From the IMG/VR virus record IMGVR_UViG_3300031466_000001, positions 32,001-96,000 of that record: 64,000 bases of DNA; one strand, given 5' to 3'. Shown in pieces: positions 2,833 to 59,173 of the stretch (within the stretch, counting starts at the first letter, position 1; each line of letters starts with the position of its first letter). A model generated the notes under the pieces. That model was not told where the DNA came from. It ran no database searches and worked only from the letters and a program-made list of their open reading frames with translations. Source of the stretch: a virus. Lineage: Duplodnaviria > Caudoviricetes. Both the position numbers and the translations under genes were made by a program.

Positions 2833-2889
2833 TATCACATTATAAAATTAACGACAGTATGTCGGATTAAATAAAGGAGGAAAAGGAAA

Positions 2890-4032
2890 ATGTCGATTAT
2901 CTTTGGTAGTCGTCAAAGACCGTCTGCTGATGAGGCGGTCCTTGAATCTCTCAATACCATTAAAACCGGCTTCATCGATGAAACTCCGGCCGGTCTGCAG
3001 CAAATTGTTACCGAATCTGCTGAAGAAATGTACCGTCTGTCCGGAAGTCTGTATATTTCCGACGTCATGATTACCGAGTCCGTTGTTATGGAAGGGGCTC
3101 AATTGGAACCCTTGGTTGAAAATTTCGTAAAGAACACCTGGGACAAACTGAAAGAAGTTTTCATGAAGCTTTGGGCAAAGCTTCGTGAGTGGTTCAACAA
3201 GGTCAAAACTTTCCTGAAGCGCGTGTTCCTGAGTGGCGAAAAATTCATCAAGGAATTTGGTGAAATTATTCGCAGCAAGAGCGACGAAGGCTTTACTTAT
3301 ACTGGCTATCAGTACAATGTAGATGCCGGTGATAAAGCTGTCGACGCAAAACGTCGTATTATCGACGGCTTCCTCGCTGAACAAATCAAGTTTGAAATCA
3401 GCGACGCTCAGAAAGAAGTAATCGGTATTAACACCGATGGTGAAGGTCAAGAAGGTTCTATCCGTAAGAATGCGGCTACGCTGGACCAAGATAAACTGAA
3501 GACCGATCTCCGCAAGAGCCTGGGTGATGAAAACTTCACCGAAGTTCTCAAGGAAATTCGTCTTATTTATCGTGGCGGCAAAGATGAGCCGGTTGAAATC
3601 AAGGGTATTGACAAAGACCGGATGATCAACTTTATCCAAAAGAATGCAAGCAGCGTTAAAGAAATTGAAGAAAGACAAAAACGTATGGATGCTGACTTCA
3701 AGCAAGTCTTGGGAGCTATCGACAAAGCTCGTTCCAAGATTCAATCCAACAAAGAACTCAGCGAAGCTGAGAAGGCTAAGCTGACCACGTATGCTACGAC
3801 CAAGTATCGCGTAGCTCACTACGCACTGGGTCTGCAACAATCGCTGACCTCGGTCACGGTTGACATGTATCGTGAAGTGGCGTCGAAGTATGAGTCGGTT
3901 CTCAAATCTTTCCTCCGATTCAAACCGGCTAAAGAAAGCTACGGTTTTGACAATGAGGAAGAAGAAAATGCATCGGCTCAACAACATTCGACTTCTCAAT
4001 CCATTCTGGAATCGGCCGCTAAGTGGCTGTAA
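2890..4032 (+). CDS. Internal head protein, paralog 2
   Basis: MSIIFG N-terminus, LVE/N site, helix KNTWDKLKEVFMKLWAKLREWF; strong RBS AAGGAGG. Confidence 0.7.
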   Translation: MSIIFGSRQRPSADEAVLESLNTIKTGFIDETPAGLQQIVTESAEEMYRLSGSLYISDVMITESVVMEGAQLEPLVENFVKNTWDKLKEVFMKLWAKLREWFNKVKTFLKRVFLSGEKFIKEFGEIIRSKSDEGFTYTGYQYNVDAGDKAVDAKRRIIDGFLAEQIKFEISDAQKEVIGINTDGEGQEGSIRKNAATLDQDKLKTDLRKSLGDENFTEVLKEIRLIYRGGKDEPVEIKGIDKDRMINFIQKNASSVKEIEERQKRMDADFKQVLGAIDKARSKIQSNKELSEAEKAKLTTYATTKYRVAHYALGLQQSLTSVTVDMYREVASKYESVLKSFLRFKPAKESYGFDNEEEENASAQQHSTSQSILESAAKWL

Positions 4033-32453: not shown

Positions 32454-33971
32454 TTATATCTGATTTAAAAAGTTCAAGAATTCATCAGACAGGATATCCG
32501 GCGTATTGATTTCAATCTTATTCCCAAGCTTTTCTGGATAATCATAATCCACTATCGTGAAATGAGAGTTGAGAAGGATTGAGAGTAGATTTATGATAAT
32601 GTTGTTTTTATTCAGCTCATCAACTACTATACCGAATTTTTCTTGGAGAATAGATTGATACACCGGAGAGTTACGAACCTTTTCCAGAAACTTCTGATTC
32701 TGAATAGTCCGTTTGATAAGCTTTTCAACGTTTCCGGATAAGATCATAGGAAGATAGATGAATCCTTGATATTGGAGACGTTTTTTCAGTATCAACATGA
32801 GCTTGATATATTGAGAGCGTGTCAAGAGATTAATATCTCTATACCCACCGAAATACTTCGCATAGAAGTAACCTACGAGCTGAACTTGAAATTTGTTGAT
32901 CTTGTGATGTTGCTCGTAGAATCTAAGCTCATCTTTGTCGATATCGATACCGAATCGTTTTTTTATCTTTTTGATCGTCTTCTTTATATTAACAGAAGAC
33001 AAGATAACCAAGGACTCATCGATTTTGGCCGAGTTCATTTCAAGCTTATCAATACCGCTCAAACCCTCTGAGTCCTTCGTTGTGGTCAATTCTCTCATCG
33101 TATAATTGTATGGTGTTATTGAAAAGAAGCCAAGCTGTTTATCCAAGACAACGGAGTTGAAACTGATGATGTTTTTGTGGAATCTATATTTCACCATCGT
33201 CTCGGAAATGATGTTCTCTTTCAGCAATGTGTCCATATAGATAAGCGGGTCCATACCCATGATCTCCCGCTGATTCCATATGACACTGTTATTACTATAG
33301 TGCCGTTTTATCTTCGACTCTACAGTTATTCGAAGTTTCAGATAGATATCAACCTTGTCGTCCCACATATAGAACAGATGTTCATAGAAGATGAACAATG
33401 GGGTCTCTTTGTCCTTGATGATGTTATTCCTATTGATATAGTGGAACAACACCGGAACCATGAGTTTCATTCCCATTGAAATCTTCATCATGATTTTTGC
33501 GTGCTCATTGGTGAATTCCAATGTCTCCGCATACTTGATGTTGTTTTTGGACTTAAGGTCGATATAATAATTATCCTCAACCATACGGTTAATTTTCTCT
33601 TTCATCGATTCGGTAAACAATACCGAGTAAAGCATTTTGATGAAAACTTTTCTTTTGATGCGTTTTTTCTTGTTGTCGATTTGATGCTTGAGCATCAGGT
33701 AAGCCATAAGCAGCTCATTATCCGTATCGTAAAACTTGATGAAATAGTTAATATACAAAGCAATTTCGGGCAACTGTTTAACATACGAATCTTTCTTGAT
33801 TACGAATACGTTAAAACCTTTGTTACCCTTCTTGAAAATTTCATCAAACGGAATAATCAGAAGCTTTCCGTCACAACGAACAATCTCGTCTTTAGGATTC
33901 TTATAGACGATCTCATTTTCACTCGCTCCTTTAGCCCATTCATCAACCCTTATAAAATCCTGCTTATTCAT
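32454..33971 (-). CDS. Probable non-virion RNAP promoter-specificity subunit (AR9 gp226/phiKZ gp68-like)
   Basis: 505 aa; 'EFTNEHAKIMMKISMGMKLMVPVL' motif; two genes from the chaperonin as in AR9 (gp226/gp228); early promoter 34025-34033. Confidence 0.6.
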   Translation of the reverse strand: MNKQDFIRVDEWAKGASENEIVYKNPKDEIVRCDGKLLIIPFDEIFKKGNKGFNVFVIKKDSYVKQLPEIALYINYFIKFYDTDNELLMAYLMLKHQIDNKKKRIKRKVFIKMLYSVLFTESMKEKINRMVEDNYYIDLKSKNNIKYAETLEFTNEHAKIMMKISMGMKLMVPVLFHYINRNNIIKDKETPLFIFYEHLFYMWDDKVDIYLKLRITVESKIKRHYSNNSVIWNQREIMGMDPLIYMDTLLKENIISETMVKYRFHKNIISFNSVVLDKQLGFFSITPYNYTMRELTTTKDSEGLSGIDKLEMNSAKIDESLVILSSVNIKKTIKKIKKRFGIDIDKDELRFYEQHHKINKFQVQLVGYFYAKYFGGYRDINLLTRSQYIKLMLILKKRLQYQGFIYLPMILSGNVEKLIKRTIQNQKFLEKVRNSPVYQSILQEKFGIVVDELNKNNIIINLLSILLNSHFTIVDYDYPEKLGNKIEINTPDILSDEFLNFLNQI

Positions 33972-34024
33972 TATCCCTAACCGCCACCCTCTATTTTAAA
34001 TTTGTTTCTCCACATCCTACCATT

Positions 34025-34033
34025 ATAATATAT
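34025..34033 (-). promoter_or_regulatory. Early promoter motif ATATATTAT
   Basis: Exact motif upstream of the sigma-like subunit. Confidence 0.65.
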
Positions 34034-34036
34034 AAT

Positions 34037-34882
34037 TTATTTAGGTCTTATTCTCGATATGGATGATTTGCGAGGTTTAATTTTTCCTTTGTCCATAAAT
34101 TTTACTAAATCATCATCCTTGGATTGTCTAGATGTGGAAGTGGCAGTTCTCTTTGTGATGCCCGTTGTTTTATTAGAGGATCTGTTTTTGGAAGAAGTAT
34201 CTTTCTTGGATTTCCTTTTTTCTTCCTCTTCTTCGCGCTTAATTCTATTATTTTCACGCTGGATTTCTCTTTCAATAGTCTCAGTATGTCTAATCTTTTT
34301 AAGAAACTCATCCTTGTTAAATTTTTTAGCTATGAGTTCAATAGCCGACTTTACCATATACTTAGAAGCATTATTCAAAATATGCTGACAAGCAAAAAAG
34401 ATGGTTTTTTCATAACTGACGATTTCACCAGGATTTCGAGTAACCGGAGGATTTTCGAATACCCTCTCATCAAATTTACCAGCAAGTTCTTCCACAAAGA
34501 GTCCGTTGAGGTTAAAAGCATAAGCATATGTGTACGTAAAACTAGGGCTGTTTGAGAAGAATTTTACATAGTATTGATTGAGATTTTTATGTTCTGTGGC
34601 ACCCTCAGATGGTATGAAGTGAAGGACTACGTCATATGTATTCCTTCTTTTAGTATTTTCACTAGGTATAATCAAATGAAAAAAATATGATTGACCATAG
34701 CTATAAATCGTCACAGAGATTTTTTTATCAGGTTTTGAAAGCAACAACTCCAGGCGATTTCGTAAATCATTTTGAATTAACTGTCTACCGGGAATGGCAT
34801 TGCTGCCTTTACCCATCGGATTGTCAACAAACTCCCTAAGCGTTTGGAGGATAAACATAATAAACCCCCTTGTATATATCAA
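34037..34882 (-). CDS. Conserved jumbo-phage hypothetical protein
   Basis: 'VKFFSNSPSFTYTYAY' motif and basic C-terminal tail. Confidence 0.55.
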   Translation of the reverse strand: MIYTRGFIMFILQTLREFVDNPMGKGSNAIPGRQLIQNDLRNRLELLLSKPDKKISVTIYSYGQSYFFHLIIPSENTKRRNTYDVVLHFIPSEGATEHKNLNQYYVKFFSNSPSFTYTYAYAFNLNGLFVEELAGKFDERVFENPPVTRNPGEIVSYEKTIFFACQHILNNASKYMVKSAIELIAKKFNKDEFLKKIRHTETIEREIQRENNRIKREEEEEKRKSKKDTSSKNRSSNKTTGITKRTATSTSRQSKDDDLVKFMDKGKIKPRKSSISRIRPK

Positions 34883-45492: not shown

Positions 45493-45563
45493 ATATATTA
45501 TAAGGGTGTTAAAGAGGAGATGGTGGATAAGTAGAAAAATACTATCCAGTTAACAAATTAGTG
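45493..45563 (+). promoter_or_regulatory. Tandem early (45493-45501) and late (45552-45563) promoters
   Basis: ATATATTAT and AACA aattag TG upstream of beta'C. Confidence 0.6.
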
Positions 45564-45594
45564 AGAGATATAATAAATAGGAGGTTGGGATTGG

Positions 45595-47604
45595 ATGATA
45601 GTGCAACCTGGTTTAACAGAAGAAGCAAAGAAAACAATGGAGTTCCTTTCAAATAATATTTTGATTATTGAAAATCACACAAAGAATAAAAAGTCATATA
45701 ATGAGTTCATTGAGAAGATCTATGATTTCGTTAAACAGGGTTTTGAACATAAAGAGTTCCGAACCCATCCAGTTTACTTTAAATTCTTCAATCGAGAAAA
45801 CGAGTATATTCACACACTTCAACTTAGACATTTTTTGACCAATATAATGATGTGGGAACCGTTGGTAAGATTGGAACGGTTCTCACATATCAACCCTCAT
45901 TACATTGTAGACTGCTCAAAGATATCTGCAAATCTCATTAAGTCATATATTGACAATATGATTATAATTCCATTCAGGAAGCAATTCGACAATAAAAAAT
46001 TGAATAAAGTTATTCACGACATGATTCATAATCTGTCTAGGATTTCGACAGATTTCAATATGATTCTTGGTTTGTCAATTAATGTTGAGACATTCATTCA
46101 AGTTGCAGAAAGAAATCCACGATTCAATGAAATAATCAGAACCAAAATCGATGAAAGTATGCAACCGAAGGAAATTGAGGATTATCTTGATCAACTCATG
46201 AATGAAGAAATTGAAATTTTGAAAACAGAAGATAACTTCCTCAAACCCATTCTGATGGCTGGGACAGGTATAAAGCCAAAGCAGCTTACCGAGTTCTCTA
46301 TTAATGGTGGGTTGAAACCGGACCTCTATGACAACACGATTCCTATTCCGATTAACTCGAACTTCATCGTTGGTGGACTGGGTAATGTAACCAATTATTA
46401 TCTGGATTCCCTTGGCGGTCGTAAGGCTGCCATTATGAATAAGCACGTAATGGGCAAATCAGGACACTTTGCCAGAATGGTTATGCTTCTTGCGTCTGAC
46501 ATTGAATTGAAGAAAAAGGGTGAGGGTGCTCTCGACTGCGGAACTCTCTATACTGTAAAGATAGAGGTGAAAACTCGTGAGCATCTTAAGAAACTTATTG
46601 GACGTTATTATCGTTTCCCTCACACTAGGGAATACAAAGTGATTAAAGCCGAGGATGAACATCTTATCGGCAAAACCATCCTGCTCCGTACGCCTGTAAG
46701 ATGTGCAGGAAAGAAAATCTGTATGAAATGTTACGGGGAACTGTATTACACGAATAAAAACCTCAAGTCTGTAGGTGGTTATGCAGGAACTCAGGTCACA
46801 AACCCACTATCACAAAATATTTTGTCAGCAAAACACTTGCTAACTACACAATCAGAAGAAATAAAATTCAACGAAGAATTTTATAAATTCTTCTCGATAA
46901 ACGTTAATGAAATTTATCTGAACACCGAGAATGAGGATGTTGATATCAACCAATATAGCATGATCATTATGAAGGATAACGTTCAGACAATTGATCAATT
47001 CGATGATAGTGAGTTCAACTCATACATCTTGTTGTTCGAATTGAAAAACCGTAAGACCGGCGAGGTCATCGAGATCCGTGAGCAAAACGGAGGAGAAATG
47101 TATATCTCTGAAGATCTCAAAAGGTTACTGGACAATAACAGATCATCCAGAGACTATTACGAGATTCCATTAAGCAATCTGTCTTTTGACGACAGATTGT
47201 TTGTCATGGAAATTGCAAATAATGAACTTACGAAGCCCCTATATAGCATCATGAACCTTCTTAATAGAAGTGATCATGAAGGATGTACTACTGTGGACGA
47301 GATGGTTCAAAAGTTTCTTGATCTACTTATCGAATCGAAATTCTCAGTAGACTCTGTTCACGCTGAGATTTTGATTAGACCGTTGATTAGGAGTACGAAA
47401 GATATACTTCAACCGCCGAATTATCGAAAATATGTAGAAGGTAACGAATATAGGATCTTGACAGTAGACTCTGCTCTTCAAAACCATCCGTCTGTTCTGA
47501 TCAGTCTGTCGTTCCAGGATCTGAGCAGACAATTGATCAAGCCCATCACATTCAGAAAGAGTGGATCTTCGTTCATCGATCCGTTCTTCAAAGAAAAAAT
47601 TTAA
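45595..47604 (+). CDS. rpoC: Phage RNAP beta' C-terminal subunit (probably non-virion RNAP)
   Basis: Bridge helix GGRKAA...SGHFARM, DCGT, RTPVRC...ICMKCYG zinc site, trigger loop PLSQNILSAKH. Confidence 0.9.
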   Translation: MIVQPGLTEEAKKTMEFLSNNILIIENHTKNKKSYNEFIEKIYDFVKQGFEHKEFRTHPVYFKFFNRENEYIHTLQLRHFLTNIMMWEPLVRLERFSHINPHYIVDCSKISANLIKSYIDNMIIIPFRKQFDNKKLNKVIHDMIHNLSRISTDFNMILGLSINVETFIQVAERNPRFNEIIRTKIDESMQPKEIEDYLDQLMNEEIEILKTEDNFLKPILMAGTGIKPKQLTEFSINGGLKPDLYDNTIPIPINSNFIVGGLGNVTNYYLDSLGGRKAAIMNKHVMGKSGHFARMVMLLASDIELKKKGEGALDCGTLYTVKIEVKTREHLKKLIGRYYRFPHTREYKVIKAEDEHLIGKTILLRTPVRCAGKKICMKCYGELYYTNKNLKSVGGYAGTQVTNPLSQNILSAKHLLTTQSEEIKFNEEFYKFFSINVNEIYLNTENEDVDINQYSMIIMKDNVQTIDQFDDSEFNSYILLFELKNRKTGEVIEIREQNGGEMYISEDLKRLLDNNRSSRDYYEIPLSNLSFDDRLFVMEIANNELTKPLYSIMNLLNRSDHEGCTTVDEMVQKFLDLLIESKFSVDSVHAEILIRPLIRSTKDILQPPNYRKYVEGNEYRILTVDSALQNHPSVLISLSFQDLSRQLIKPITFRKSGSSFIDPFFKEKI

Positions 47605-47717: not shown

Positions 47718-48248
47718 ATGGAGAAAGTAATGGCAACTGGAATTCCTCTTGGAAAGTGGGCACGTCAAAATGATCCGGGTGATCATAAGTTTAAGCAATA
47801 TTACTGGGATCAGATCAACTTTGTTGCAAATAAAATTGGCCTTCTGTTCTTCGATGATCGACTGACAATCAACGGACTCGGTTTGAGAATAAAAGTAATC
47901 GAGTCTCATGTAGCCAAATCTCTGAGACTCCCAGTATTCTTCTTGGATTTCAAAGATATTTTCGGGGTCGAATTCATACTCGCAAACAATCTCCTCGGAT
48001 GGAGAGTCAGCGTGAATAGTGTTATACCCCTCACTGTCGATTTCTATGATATAGTCGACACCAGAAATAGAAATCATCTGATCTTCGATGCTGGTTATAG
48101 TGAGGATATGGTATATGAATCCCATGAAGATAACAAGTATCGCTTCACTTTCAATTGCTCTGACAGCTTTGACCTCTATGTCGCATTAACCATCATCAGG
48201 AGTCATCTTATCCACACGAATAACTTCATTCCTAAAAAAGCTGGTTGA
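47718..48248 (+). CDS. Hypothetical early protein
   Basis: RBS GGAGG; early promoter 47671-47679. Confidence 0.65.
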   Translation: MEKVMATGIPLGKWARQNDPGDHKFKQYYWDQINFVANKIGLLFFDDRLTINGLGLRIKVIESHVAKSLRLPVFFLDFKDIFGVEFILANNLLGWRVSVNSVIPLTVDFYDIVDTRNRNHLIFDAGYSEDMVYESHEDNKYRFTFNCSDSFDLYVALTIIRSHLIHTNNFIPKKAG

Positions 48249-49984: not shown

Positions 49985-50069
49985 TTAAAATACGGGGTTT
50001 ATCAAAACCCCGTATTTTAATTTATATATTATATTTTTGATATTAATAAATAATTAAGGAGGAATTAAA

Positions 50070-50822
50070 ATGACTGGACAACAATCGGCAACCGAAATGA
50101 AAAAACCGAAGCTTCTTTTCGGCCAAATTCGTGAAAGAGACGATGAATATGTTGACGAGGCTTTTGTTGTAATTAAATTGACGAATAACAGCTATGTTGC
50201 CGTCAAATTGTCTGATGATGGTGAACATGGTCCTATTCGTGAATGTGAACATTTTGAAGAAGTGTTTAAAGTTGTGAATAAACGAATTTTTGCAGAATAT
50301 TGCACCATTGAAGGTTTTATGGAAGCCTTCCCAAATTTACTGAAAAAGAGAGGGAATATAGTCGAACCAGCATTTTTCTCTCTATTCAATAAGATTGTAG
50401 AAAGTGTGCTTAATGATAAAGGTTCATTCAATCGGGGGAAAAATAATGAAAATGCTCAAATAGATGTCGATATCTATTCAGTTACCTTTCATTTGAAGGG
50501 TGAAGTCGTTGAGTGTTGGTATAACGACCGTAACAAAAATAAAACTGGAAATTCTGTAGAGATACCCCTCACTGTTTTCTTGGCAAACAACATTACCAAA
50601 GATGTGACAGAGAAAATCGTTGAAAATATGAAAAAGAAAAAATATTCTATGGCATCCTTTGGTAGGAGTAAGATGAGGAACGCTGATGACGATTTCTCCA
50701 ATGCAAGAAATGTTCATTGTCGAAAGACAAATAGGGTTTTATCTGAAAGAGAAGCAGAAAATGAATTTAGATTGCCTATAGTTGAGCCCAATACCGTTTC
50801 ATTATATGAATTCTTTTCGTAA
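50070..50822 (+). CDS. Hypothetical early protein
   Basis: RBS AAGGAGG; early promoter 50024-50032. Confidence 0.65.
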   Translation: MTGQQSATEMKKPKLLFGQIRERDDEYVDEAFVVIKLTNNSYVAVKLSDDGEHGPIRECEHFEEVFKVVNKRIFAEYCTIEGFMEAFPNLLKKRGNIVEPAFFSLFNKIVESVLNDKGSFNRGKNNENAQIDVDIYSVTFHLKGEVVECWYNDRNKNKTGNSVEIPLTVFLANNITKDVTEKIVENMKKKKYSMASFGRSKMRNADDDFSNARNVHCRKTNRVLSEREAENEFRLPIVEPNTVSLYEFFS

Positions 50823-50953
50823 GAATAATGTAAAGAGATAGTACAAAAAATATTTTATGATAAGGATATAGGATTTTTACCGTATCCTTTATTTTTTTAT
50901 TTATTATATCATAATAATGAAGATAATTAATAAAAAAATTAGGAGGTTAAAAA

Positions 50954-51180
50954 ATGGCTTTCAAAGGTTATAATACTATACAAGAATTACTGGAAAAGGA
51001 CAGGACTACACGGACGGAGAAATTATCAAAATATGGGAAGCAATTAAATACTGCTTAAAAGAAAAGTTGTATTCTTTGGATGAACCGTATGATACGGTAT
51101 ATTTCCCCGGTGTTACTATGGGTGATTGGGTGGAAGCGGTATATTGTGAAATGGAAAGAAGAAAATTAAAGGTCTCATGA
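50954..51180 (+). pseudogene. Small early gene with 1-nt frameshift (or -1 recoding)
   Basis: RBS AGGAGG; MAFKGYNTIQELLEK then the -1 frame GQDYTDGEIIKIWEAIK...LKVS*; junction GGAAAAG. Confidence 0.55.
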
Positions 51181-51237
51181 CCTTTTTTTTATTTCTATCT
51201 TTTATTTTTTTTTTCACTAAAAAATAATTAAATTAAA

Positions 51238-51249
51238 AACATAAAGGTA
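51238..51249 (+). promoter_or_regulatory. Late promoter AACA-N6-TA with no downstream ORF
   Basis: AACA taaagg TA. Confidence 0.7.
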
Positions 51250-51317
51250 ATTATCCCAACCCATCCCCAACCCCCCTCAAAGCGGATGCACTCAAATGTG
51301 CATCCGCAATTTTTTTT
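51249..51317 (+). ncRNA. Predicted ~69-nt C-rich late small RNA
   Basis: Late promoter, single-stranded C-rich body (ATCCCAACCC ATCCCCAACCCCCC), then 10-bp hairpin GCGGATGCAC/GTGCATCCGC plus T8. Confidence 0.6.
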
Positions 51318-51348
51318 GTTAAAAAGGTATATTTTTGGAATATAAATT

Positions 51349-51357
51349 ATATATTAT
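51349..51357 (+). promoter_or_regulatory. Early promoter motif ATATATTAT facing the GC-rich insert
   Basis: Exact motif; no RBS-led ORF follows on the + strand. Confidence 0.55.
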
Positions 51358-51377
51358 ATTTTTGGAAATACTTATTT

Positions 51378-52052
51378 GGTATAAAGTCCTGCGGCTCGTA
51401 GGGCCGACGGCGCCGCTTTTGGTCGCGGTTCGCATTCGCAACCGTCGACGCGATGAGGCCAGCGCGCGCCCAGCCCTCAAGGCTAAAGTGCGGATCGCTG
51501 ATCAGACCGCCGAGATCGCCGCTGCCGAATTGATCCACGAACCACTTCGGCGCCGGCACGTGCTCAGTCAGCGATTCGGCGATTGCTATTTTCTTCGAAT
51601 CAATTTAGTGTTCTTATCCCAATTTTCCATTTGCTTTTTTATAGAATCAAAACGTTCATCCTGTTCTTTTGAAAACTTTTCGAATTTCTCAATATCATCC
51701 ATAACTTTCTTGTGCACAAACCCTATGAATTGTTTGGTTTTAGAGAACATGCGAAATGCCTCCTTTTTCTGAACTTTATTATACGCAAAAAGTATTAATT
51801 ATACCACTGTCAAACAACCCCGCCCAGCCACACGGCCAGGCGGGGTTTCTTCCCGTTCACTTCCCGATGATGTTTTTCGTTCCACTCCAAAGCCCCATCG
51901 CGCTGAACGCCATGACAAAACCGGCCAGTACAGCGTATTTCGGATCGTCCGGCGCCACGTACACGAACTCGGCGATCTGGTCAGTCGCGCGGATCAGGTT
52001 TCGATGCACCGCCTCCGCGAGCTTCACAGCGGCCGCCGGGCGGGTGGTGTAT
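51378..52052 (-). mobile_element. Foreign GC-rich mosaic of temperate-phage fragments
   Basis: Abrupt GC rise. Minus-strand pieces: amidase-like ~51983-52051, holin C-terminus 51857-~51982, terminator 51815-51851, 54-aa gene, lysin C-terminal-like ~51468-51585, tail-chaperone-like ~51378-51468. Confidence 0.7.
51586..51750 (-). CDS. 54-aa moron-like protein inside the foreign insert
   Basis: RBS AAAGGAGG; MFSKTKQFIGFVHKKVMDDIEKFEKFSKEQDERFDSIKKQMENWDKNTKLIRRK*; host-type TGnTATAAT upstream. Confidence 0.7.
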   Translation of the reverse strand: MFSKTKQFIGFVHKKVMDDIEKFEKFSKEQDERFDSIKKQMENWDKNTKLIRRK

Positions 52053-52073
52053 ACTATTAGTCCAAATTAGTAA

Positions 52074-52112
52074 AAAATAAAGGGATGGTTAATATACCAT
52101 CCTTTATTTTTT
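52074..52112. terminator. Bidirectional terminator
   Basis: AAAAATAAAGGGATGGT/ACCATCCTTTATTTTT near-perfect inverted repeat. Confidence 0.8.
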
Positions 52113-52563
52113 ATGTTAGCCGCATTTTATTCTTATACATAAATTCTTTTCTTACAAAATAACTATGTTCCTGAAGTTTATTTCGAATATCTTCAGGTAT
52201 AGCTTGGTTTTTACTGACCATTTCATAAACAGCAATGATAGTATCAAACATAACATTTGCCGCTTCAAATGCTTCCTTAGAAGTATAATTTCTATCTGCA
52301 TCGGCTATAAAATATTTAAATAACGAATCTTTTTCCAAAACATCTAATGCAAAACTATAGCTAACGGGATTTGTATTTAATTGAATACAAATTTCAGCAA
52401 CTTCATCTACAAATTCATTTAATTTTTTTGCATACTCGTCAAATACTGAATGTGTAGGATCAAAATCCGTTCCGGTCACTTTCCAATGAAGAACCTTCAT
52501 GTTGTGAGCGTACACGACAAGTACAGACAAAAGACGTTGAATTGGATTAAACATTTTTTTCAT
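52111..52563 (-). CDS. dps: Dps/ferritin-like protein
   Basis: LHWKVTGTDFDPTH...VDEVAE ferroxidase motifs. Confidence 0.8.
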   Translation of the reverse strand: MKKMFNPIQRLLSVLVVYAHNMKVLHWKVTGTDFDPTHSVFDEYAKKLNEFVDEVAEICIQLNTNPVSYSFALDVLEKDSLFKYFIADADRNYTSKEAFEAANVMFDTIIAVYEMVSKNQAIPEDIRNKLQEHSYFVRKEFMYKNKMRLT

Positions 52564-52574
52564 CCTCCATTTTA

Positions 52575-57400: not shown

Positions 57401-57405
57401 TTATA
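57394..57405 (+). promoter_or_regulatory. Late promoter AACA-N6-TA
   Basis: AACA taatta TA before the capsid gene. Confidence 0.75.
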
Positions 57406-57433
57406 AAAAAATAAAGGAAGGAAGTGTAAATCT

Positions 57434-59173
57434 ATGGCGTCCTTTGATTACCTGGACGACGAATTCCAAACCACTAACGTGGTTGGTAGTTTTGTAACAG
57501 ACCGTGAGCATGATTTCAAAGCATCCATCAAAGCTGTACTTGAGGGTTTCCGTAATGCTACGCAAACGGACCCGATTGAGGACATCGCAAAGATCCTCAA
57601 AATCGAATCTCTGACTGAGGACTACAAGAATCGTCTTATCGGTGACGTTCTCACGGAAAGTGCAATTAAAGACGATCCGTATCTGTCGCTGATGCCGGAG
57701 AAACTGGAACAGCTTTTCGAAAACACGAGGGTGGAAATCCTGCGCGAATCTTCGGTTGGTCAGCTGGCCCCGATCGTTGGTATCTCGCTGCCGGTTCTGA
57801 AGAAGAACTATCTGCAATGTCACTCGAAGGACATTGTGATGACGGAAGTTCCGGCTAAGCCGATCGTGAAGGTTTCTTTCGAACGCCGTTTCCTGAAGGA
57901 TAAGAACGGCAACAGGTACTACATCCCGGAAATCTTCTACGATGACAGCTACAAGAATGTGCTCGGTGAAATGCGCGGCAAACCGATCAGTAACAAATGG
58001 TATCCGGAAGTTGGCAGCCTGCCGTTCCAAGACCTCGACCTGCTGACGGAATCCGGCGGTTCGATGCAAATGCGTGACTCGCTGGGTCTGGACTTCGTTA
58101 TTGACGCTGTTCAAATCGAAGTTATGGGTCCGGCCGCTACGCCGACGCCGGTTCTGAAGACCATCGAAGGTCTGAACATTGTTCCGGATACGGGTGTCAA
58201 TGGTGGTGCCGGTATCGGTTCCTTCAGCTATCGTATCAACACGGAAGACGAGCAAGGCAACCCGGTAAGCGACGTTATTGTCGGTCAAATCAGCTTCTAT
58301 GACGGCAAAGTCTCGGTCGCTTCGACAGGTGGCAAGATCAAGAAAGTTCGTTTCGGCGGTCATCTGTCGAACCAAAACAACGTTAACACGGTTGACTTGG
58401 ACCGTGAACGTGAGAACCTGACGTGGCAAATTCCGGACGGCTATCGTCTGAACACGGGTCTGACCATTGAGAAGATCAAGGACTACAAGGCTCTGTTCAA
58501 CACGGATATCACGACGGAAATCATCGCCGATATTTCGACGGTTCTGACGCAACTGGAAGACTCGACGATCCTGGACTTCCTGGATTCGAGTCTGGCAAAA
58601 TGGAAAACCAAGAAGAATCTGCCGTTTGGTTACACGGATGGCTTCGTAGAATCCTACCGGTTCTCGGCTACTCCGCCGGCAAACATCTTCGTTACGGTTT
58701 CGCAATGGATCGGTTCTGAACTCAAGTACTTCCTGAACCGTGAAATTGACCAACTCAAAACGAAGCTGCGTACCGAAGACATCATGTTCGTGGTATATGG
58801 CCACCCGAACAACATCACGCTGATCCAAGATGATGTTCGTTGGGTCATCGACGAAGACACGAAGATTGGCGGTATTCAACTGGACTACAAGTTCGGTGTT
58901 ATGACCGCTAACAAGAACCGTGTCCATGTTGTCTCCACGCTTAAGGTGCCGAAGTCGAAGGGCATTCGGATCGTTGCGTATCCGCTGTCCAAAGAAGTCA
59001 TCACCTTCAAGCATTACAAGTACAGCCTGAACATCGAAAACGTCTACCGGAATCCGTTCACGCCGCTGACGCCGAACGTAATGGGTGTATCCCGTTACCT
59101 GACGACGGAAGTTCTGCCGGTTCAAGGCGAATTCATCATCTACAACGACGATTTCGGTCGTCAAGAGCTGTAA
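57434..59173 (+). CDS. Major capsid protein
   Basis: 579 aa, strongest codon bias in the window, propeptide ending ILRE/S, own promoter and terminator, between protease and terminase. Confidence 0.8.
   Translation: MASFDYLDDEFQTTNVVGSFVTDREHDFKASIKAVLEGFRNATQTDPIEDIAKILKIESLTEDYKNRLIGDVLTESAIKDDPYLSLMPEKLEQLFENTRVEILRESSVGQLAPIVGISLPVLKKNYLQCHSKDIVMTEVPAKPIVKVSFERRFLKDKNGNRYYIPEIFYDDSYKNVLGEMRGKPISNKWYPEVGSLPFQDLDLLTESGGSMQMRDSLGLDFVIDAVQIEVMGPAATPTPVLKTIEGLNIVPDTGVNGGAGIGSFSYRINTEDEQGNPVSDVIVGQISFYDGKVSVASTGGKIKKVRFGGHLSNQNNVNTVDLDRERENLTWQIPDGYRLNTGLTIEKIKDYKALFNTDITTEIIADISTVLTQLEDSTILDFLDSSLAKWKTKKNLPFGYTDGFVESYRFSATPPANIFVTVSQWIGSELKYFLNREIDQLKTKLRTEDIMFVVYGHPNNITLIQDDVRWVIDEDTKIGGIQLDYKFGVMTANKNRVHVVSTLKVPKSKGIRIVAYPLSKEVITFKHYKYSLNIENVYRNPFTPLTPNVMGVSRYLTTEVLPVQGEFIIYNDDFGRQEL

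Follow-up and report, generated by a model that had tools for sequence, protein, structure and literature searches.

We report a predicted small RNA (sRNA) gene of a jumbo phage whose product would act in trans by base-pairing and exert feedback on the sigma-like subunit of the phage's late RNA polymerase (RNAP), a reading that we consider probable. The gene lies in the 64,000-nucleotide stretch of DNA analysed here (hereafter the window), and its architecture is found in ten further lineages. Computation establishes its promoter and terminator without an open reading frame (ORF), its conservation, and a complementarity that tracks the cognate target from phage to phage.

The window is an AT-rich piece (about 35% GC) of the genome of an uncultured jumbo phage. 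Bacillus phage AR9/PBS1 is a distant relative, and the DNA polymerase, beta'C and helicase genes are syntenic in AR9 and the window. An earlier note on this DNA had taken the two proposed target genes to encode subunits of the non-virion RNAP, and homology to AR9 bears this out. Indeed, ORF 45595-47604 is ~31% identical to AR9 g154, the C-terminal beta' subunit (beta'C) of this enzyme. The second ORF matches AR9 gp226 in BLASTP (24% identity over 431 aa, E = 2e-23) and phrog_25005 (E = 4e-31), and the gene order GroEL-hypothetical-gp226 is common to the window and AR9. In AR9, gp226 serves the non-virion RNAP as its sigma-like promoter-specificity subunit, and the core of the enzyme elongates without it (PMC9209446). 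The AR9 early promoter consensus is AAATATATATTAT-N6-G, the late one is AACA-N6-TA/G with the last base as the transcription start site (TSS), and operons terminate at intrinsic terminators (PMC5312081).

Both types of AR9 motif are in use in the window phage. The early-type motif TATATATTAT stands upstream of many window genes, both proposed sRNA targets included, and the early motif ahead of the gp226-like gene (AATTATATATTAT, Table 1) also precedes the orthologous gene in all relatives. As for the late motif, AACA-N6-T[AG] occurs 13 times in sense and twice in antisense orientation in 49 upstream regions of the window (shuffles, 3.9 +/- 1.8), with a TSS 20-33 nt before the ATG and often ahead of structural genes; such cores are short and also arise by chance, 46 being present in the window. 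Two motifs stand ahead of the beta'C gene (window 45495-45595), namely the early AATTATATATTAT (about 45494-45506) and the late core AACAAATTAGTG, whose TSS is 32 nt before the ATG; AR9 uses such an early and late promoter pair for continuously expressed genes. Elsewhere in the window, near full-length ORFs are found on both strands at 1669-2838, 2848-4032 and 57401-59173; in the last case the major head gene (57434-59173, plus strand) is overlapped by a 587-aa minus-strand ORF, which is probably a codon-bias artefact.

The proposed late promoter, AACA taaagg TA, is present as the earlier note had described it (Table 1), and its motif is the one enriched sense-wise ahead of window genes. Sequence and folding likewise uphold the ~33 nt of C-rich, ORF-less sequence followed by a strong terminator that had been claimed to define a ~69-nt RNA. 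The spacer, which extends to 51281, consists of 33 nt of A, C and U only, G being absent, and no ORF with a Shine-Dalgarno (SD) sequence and a start codon fits within the 69 nt. The folded RNA comprises these 33 nt, all unpaired, and the terminator hairpin, with a dG of -20.6 kcal/mol and a z-score of -8.2 that none of 200 shuffles equalled. Since only three T follow the hairpin on the minus strand, the terminator is one-directional.

Table 1. Positions in the window of the predicted sRNA, its proposed targets and the associated promoters
Feature	Position	Strand	Basis or remark
Late (non-virion RNAP) promoter core AACA-TAAAGG-TA	51238..51249	+	AR9 late consensus; predicted TSS A51249
Predicted 69-nt non-coding RNA	51249..51317	+	promoter, no ORF, 33 unpaired nt, terminator
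Predicted seed AUUAUCCC-AACC-CAUCC, pairing with the gp226-like start region	51250..51266	+	duplex energy, conserved boxes
Predicted seed sub-part AUCCCAACC, pairing with the beta'C start region	51253-51261	+	complementarity
Intrinsic terminator: perfect 10-bp GC-rich hairpin (51282-51307), AA, T8 (51310-51317)	51282..51317	+	sequence, folding
Proposed main target: SD region and AUG of the gp226-like mRNA (GGGUGGCGGUUAGGGAUAAUG)	33969..33989	-	claimed string GGGTGGCGGTTAGGGATAAT at 33989-33970, ends in AU of ATG
Second proposed target, specific to some lineages: GGUUGGGAU, flanked by SD and AUG of beta'C	45583..45591	+	9-nt perfect complement
Gene of the sigma-like promoter-specificity subunit (AR9 gp226 homologue) of the non-virion RNAP	32454..33971	-	BLASTP, phrog_25005, gene order
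Early (virion RNAP) promoter motif AATTATATATTAT ahead of the gp226-like gene	34025..34037	-	resembles AR9 early consensus

The unit is 100% identical in five contigs from four metagenome samples (compared over 51100-51700), which confirms the sequence but yields no covariation information. Scanning 50000-52500 with the Rfam 15 covariance models (cmscan, E up to 10) gave no match on 51238-51317, RsaE/RoxS, FsrA and C4 included, and a long homologue (L013) gave only sub-threshold hairpin matches. No similarity was found between the DNA of the region and GenBank phages or PLSDB plasmids, and an exact search of IMG/VR with the C-tract returned nothing. A search for relatives with the flanking proteins yielded only one near-identical contig, which ends before the unit, and the nearest record (G001) does not span it.

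Related loci were gathered through helicase homologues (55-65% identity) from Logan, ENA, JGI and IMG/VR, and the architecture of the unit is present in ten lineages besides the window. In nine of them (L010, L011/L014, L013, L015, which is the complete genome G002, L017, L174, L175, L176 and L177) the helicase stop codon leads directly to an AACA-N6-T[AG] core, 20-60 nt of G-poor unpaired sequence and a strong terminator, next to which come convergent DUF7484 and protease genes. In the tenth, G006, the unit lies about 770 nt past the helicase, and in the window the two are set apart by a ~1.2-kb insertion that holds a small frameshifted ORF and one of 250 aa. AACA is invariant and the TSS-adjacent bases nearly so in an alignment of 10 homologous units, and the 11th unit (G006) has the same core. 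Two boxes are shared by the sRNAs, a 5′ box AU(U)AUCCC (AUAUCCC) and a downstream box ACACCAAC(C) (ACACCAACC). The terminator arms differ by compensatory changes (GGATGCAC/GTGCATCC versus AGATGCAT/ATGCATCT), the window stem showing such changes against its L011 homologue, and the further arms GTAGATACC, CGAGATACC and CTATATACC each have a matching 3′ arm. Shared boxes and compensatory changes together indicate that the units are homologous and that the hairpin is under selection.

A strict scan for this architecture in 1.7 Mb of related loci gave eight distinct matches, six of them family members, together with a reversed unit (L016) and a dubious one (L042). The L013 homologue is 165 nt long (L013 11503-11667), with three extra hairpins between seed and terminator, and that of L177 is intermediate at 112 nt; the sRNA family thus varies in size while the seed boxes are kept. 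The unit is, on this comparative evidence, a conserved gene. It displays three features of trans-encoded base-pairing sRNAs, namely a promoter of its own (11 homologous units), its own terminator without an ORF, and an accessible seed whose complementarity to a target start region relatives keep. Its AACA-N6-T[A/G] core and the gp226-type subunit encoded by the phage are those of an AR9-type late transcription unit.

The junction between the helicase gene and the convergent DUF7484-protease genes is an insertion hotspot (window 49985-52574 versus L011 11563-11656 and L013 11455-11672). Relatives have there the sRNA unit alone (92-216 nt), whereas the window has 2.6 kb extra, which hold the 250-aa ORF (no relatives outside this phage), a foreign-fragment cassette and a ferritin/Dps-like gene. 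Upstream of the sRNA, a small ORF (window 50954-51180) is broken into pieces of 34 aa and 37 aa by a frameshift close to the A-run GGAAAAGG (about 50995); without the break it would encode ~75 aa, and the same break is found in the JGI gene calls of identical contigs. In window 51343-52105, an early motif AATTATATATTAT (about 51345-51357, plus strand) just past the sRNA terminator points into two GC-rich islands, at 51380-51590 (~65% GC) and 51810-52050 (~60% GC); between them lies an AT-rich gene of 54 aa on the minus strand (51586-51750), which has a strong SD. The first island has a weak Phage_tail_T match on its minus strand (E = 4.7e-5) and the second ends in a GC-rich terminator. As the five independent contigs are identical over a range that includes the first island but not the second, at least the part with the first island is no assembly chimera. 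On the other side of the helicase, three relatives (L174 4324-4674, L176 6945-7292 and L177 8339-8692) encode between beta'C and helicase a small protein with a match to the Acb2/Tad1 hairpin domain (PF24729, anti-CBASS/Thoeris sponge family); the window ORF at the corresponding position (47718-48248) has no PF24729 match.

Turning to the targets, the pairing put forward between the 5′ part of the sRNA and 33970-33989, across the ribosome-binding site (RBS) and AUG of the gp226-like gene, is borne out by the sequence, with both strings where they were said to be. In the window this pairing is interrupted (8+4+5 bp). The gp226-like 5′ UTR is unstructured there (MFE -4.3, z = +1.1), so that the expected effect of pairing is to mask the site and not to open it. 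The predicted seed duplexes reach -24.4 and -23.8 kcal/mol.

To what extent such a match exceeds chance in the window was judged on start regions taken from -35 to +20 (73-74 in the window). The terminase ranks first, followed by gp226-like (2), beta'C (3) and DNA polymerase (4). Measured against other RBSs and shuffled controls, the two targets thus rank 2 and 3 of 73-74, with the terminase ahead of them and a per-gene shuffle p of 0.035 for gp226-like (0.027 in a second test) and 0.065 for beta'C. Composition-matched shuffles of the sRNA bring the gp226-like and beta'C sites into the top 3 in 30-34% of trials. The large terminase was rejected as top target; its site is a generic G-rich one, placed among the top 3 by 60% of the shuffled C-rich RNAs. 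The caution, voiced with the original proposal, that any C-rich RNA partly matches SD sequences was well placed, shuffles often picking the same G-rich sites. Perfect matches of at least 9 nt to the sRNA number 11 in the 64 kb, one of which is in a start region. In an inverse scan of all 30-nt windows against the gp226-like site, several gave equally good duplexes, the sRNA being unexceptional both in the window and in G002. With this outcome and the modest shuffle p values, pairing within the phage's own window cannot stand alone: taken by itself, the window makes the targets suggestive, with modest pairing (p about 0.03).

The comparison between lineages carries the case for the gp226-like target. 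The gp226-like start regions share two blocks, GAGG(U/G)UGG(U/C)G(U) (GGUUGGUGU) and GGG(G)AUA-AUG (GGGAUAAUG), and the sRNA boxes are antisense and colinear to both, the 5′ box facing the AUG-proximal block and the downstream box the upstream one. The target test covered the seven lineages for which both sequences were available (window, L010, L011, L013, L176, G002 and G006). In 7/7, complementarity exists between the sRNA and the gp226-like mRNA of the same phage, around the SD and AUG of the latter. Cognate duplexes are longest in L013 (13 nt perfect, 15 with G-U), L011 (11 nt perfect + 4) and L176 (~30 nt, -31.2 kcal/mol); G006 pairs over 9 + 6 bp, L010 reaches -20.1 kcal/mol, and the match in G002 is short (7 + 3 bp). 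With 1000 shuffles per sRNA, p was 0.027 for the window, 0.075 for G002 and 0.035, <0.001, <0.001, 0.001 and 0.029 for the other five. The rank of the gp226-like site among the available start regions, computed for six lineages, was 2/73 in the window, 4/233 in G002 and first in the others (1/26, 1/28, 1/30 and 1/27).

Each sRNA also fits the site of its own phage. In a 6 x 6 matrix of sRNAs against gp226-like sites, the cognate site was the best in every row and the diagonal the best of 720 permutations; with G006 added, the cognate assignment over seven lineages was the second best of 5040. As for the comparison of sRNA and target sites in related phages that the earlier note had proposed, complementarity tracks the cognate gp226-like site. 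Because the lineages share ancestry, the tests are partly interdependent and the p values overstate their independence. The G006 unit had been found blind, as the best short unit when ORF-less late units were ranked genome-wide against the gp226-like site. From the sRNA boxes of L017, L174, L175 and L177 we predict that a block like AGGUUGGU...GGGGAU precedes the AUG of their gp226-like genes.

No trans complement of the phage's own gp226 start region was found in AR9, G007 or G008, and the lack of one in these distant relatives points to a circuit confined to one clade. For the reversed unit of L016 there is no match in the gp226-like start region of G005, apparently the same phage as L016. 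The gp226-like gene shows peculiarities of its own in two of these genomes. In G005 (C1:83772-85798; loci L203 and L205) it is in two pieces ~450 nt apart with stop codons inside the matches, and could have been split by an intron or a homing-endonuclease insertion, or be broken. G008, a 250-kb IMG/VR record, has two diverged copies near its ends (C1:7780-9300 and 235118-236608; L204 and L201), both with similar G-rich start regions (GGGGGUGGGAUAUUA).

The second target had been proposed on a perfect 9-nt pairing, and this match is real: GGTTGGGAT lies 4-12 nt before the ATG of the beta'C ORF and its start region ranks 3/73 in the window. The beta'C site is the best, or second after gp226, in the window, L010, L011 and L174, and the permutation test of cognate assignment gives p = 0.015. 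It is however lineage-specific, beta'C being no target in four lineages, L013, L176 (rank 14/27), L177 (20/25) and G002 (209/233), and the low ranks in the last three rule it out as a conserved target. We read beta'C as a secondary target probably gained in one sub-clade. The broader idea that the late polymerase transcribes an RNA repressing its own subunits accordingly keeps its gp226-like half, with complementarity in 7/7 lineages, and is narrowed for beta'C to some of them.

Could the C-rich strand instead bind or titrate many G-rich start sites of phage and/or host mRNAs, as a broad anti-ribosome-site RNA for global late tuning? We hold this to be unlikely. It would account for the presence of terminase and DNA polymerase beside both RNAP subunits among the four best start regions of the window, for the frequency with which composition-matched shuffles match these same G-rich sites, and for two further C-tracts in the window RNA (51265-51276) that are unused in gp226 pairing. 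Yet genes with early promoters are no better targets than the rest (p 0.16 in the window, 0.33 in the complete G002 genome), and with no shift of these genes to better pairing in either, a general late attack on early genes was rejected. The other top matches in G002 are unrelated structural and QueC-like genes. The conserved boxes also match bases outside the SD in one particular start region, and the best fit of each sRNA is to the site of its own phage.

That the unit is an orphan promoter and terminator without RNA function, a by-product of the convergent junction of helicase and structural block whose transcription is perhaps only insulating, appears very unlikely. In most relatives it does lie exactly at that junction, where the hairpin could terminate the helicase transcript, and late cores are chance-prone, as their number in the window illustrates. 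Against this, two boxes are kept in the spacer, which in 11 lineages remains unpaired and poor in G and follows a distant start region in sequence, and in the window and G006 promoter and terminator have moved together away from the helicase stop. It is slightly less credible still that the RNA binds protein or serves as a decoy, its G-free C/A-rich tract acting like a Rho loading (rut) or other C-binding site to titrate a factor. The unpaired 5′ part is poor in G and rich in C and A throughout the family, and the window tract is the most C-rich 24-mer of the 64 kb; several members (L176, L013) are nevertheless not especially C-rich, and the colinear two-block antisense match and the cognate specificity would be left unexplained.

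The least probable alternative is an element acting as DNA, either a template-strand G-quadruplex (G4)/i-motif or an operator inverted at two loci for one DNA-binding protein: the same blocks are present as DNA at both loci and 51255-51276 is the sole canonical four-tract pattern in the window (0.03 expected per shuffle), but none of ten homologous units has four C-tracts, which rules out G4/i-motif formation as the family function, and an operator needs neither placement between promoter and terminator in an unpaired transcript nor antisense colinearity with SD and AUG.

Under the preferred reading, a base-pairing sRNA with the gp226-like mRNA as its main target, we can propose the following course of infection. 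Early on, the injected virion RNAP would transcribe the gp226-like subunit gene from its early promoter, and the subunit would join the non-virion RNAP core and turn on the late promoters (AACA-N6-TA). The late promoter at the unit would then give rise to the 69-nt RNA ending at the strong intrinsic terminator, whose unstructured 5′ end (AUUAUCCC-AACC-CAUCC) may pair with the gp226-like mRNA over its SD region and the AU of its start codon. Such pairing would block 30S binding and perhaps expose the mRNA to decay. The outcome would be negative feedback, or a late shut-off, acting on the polymerase's own promoter-recognition subunit. In the sub-clade of the window, the same seed also fits the start region of the beta'C subunit. 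Transcription of the RNA, its binding and the resulting repression are inferred; as its exposed C-rich end matches the gp226-like RBS, synthesis of the subunit is probably switched off late.

Among described systems, the c4 antisense RNA of phages P1 and P7 (Rfam C4; Citron and Schuster 1990), which blocks translation by pairing near an RBS, is comparable (PMC12197685). Like the predicted action of the window sRNA, c4 is a phage RNA acting in trans on a phage mRNA around the RBS, with a specificity that co-evolves and differs between related phages. While c4 is processed from the operon of its target and serves antirepressor control in temperate phages, the window sRNA has its own late promoter and terminator in a virulent-type jumbo phage, its proposed target is a subunit mRNA encoded 17 kb away on the other strand, and it has no match to the C4 family in Rfam. 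In Firmicutes, RsaE/RoxS and FsrA are chromosomal sRNAs that regulate metabolic mRNAs; their conserved hairpins display C-rich loops whose UCCC motifs pair with G-rich SD regions and repress translation. The window sRNA resembles them in being short and in having an intrinsic terminator and unpaired C-rich motifs, and differs by its linear 5′ seed, its viral gene and a lack of sequence or structure homology in cmscan.

AR9 late promoters also drive non-coding or cis-antisense transcripts, and no trans-acting sRNA gene was described there (Lavysh et al. 2017, PMC5312081). Its late units are like that of the window in promoter grammar, early motif and intrinsic termination, but AR9 has neither a unit after the helicase nor a trans complement of its own gp226 start. 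The regulatory logic also has bacterial parallels. The sigma-E-dependent MicA and RybB and the sigma-28-dependent MotR and FliX are sRNAs whose targets are members of the regulon of a bacterial sigma factor or regulators upstream of it. There, as in the circuit proposed here, a promoter-recognition factor drives an sRNA that damps its own pathway; in the phage, the sRNA is predicted to act directly on the mRNA that encodes the specificity subunit, and the enzyme is a non-canonical multisubunit phage RNAP. The AR9 and phiKZ literature describes promoters and structures, and we found in it no post-transcriptional or sRNA control of RNAP subunits; RNA polymerase goes unmentioned in a 2025 review of phage-derived sRNAs (PMC12197685).

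We regard as evenly balanced the wider proposal that, in a clade of uncultured AR9-like jumbo phages, a dedicated sRNA provides autoregulation of the non-canonical late RNAP, with seed and site co-evolving and beta'C added in some lineages. The circuit lends itself to testing, as it consists of a 69-nt RNA and a target site of ~20 nt, with natural compensatory variants in at least seven lineages. If true, it would have no described precedent, among multisubunit phage RNAPs, as a feedback loop based on RNA. Because the AR9 core elongates without the specificity subunit (PMC9209446), this subunit would be a natural control point. The finding also suggests that the many ORF-less late units in these phages are regulators with specific targets, and it would bear on how jumbo phages with two multisubunit RNAPs time and limit their late polymerase.
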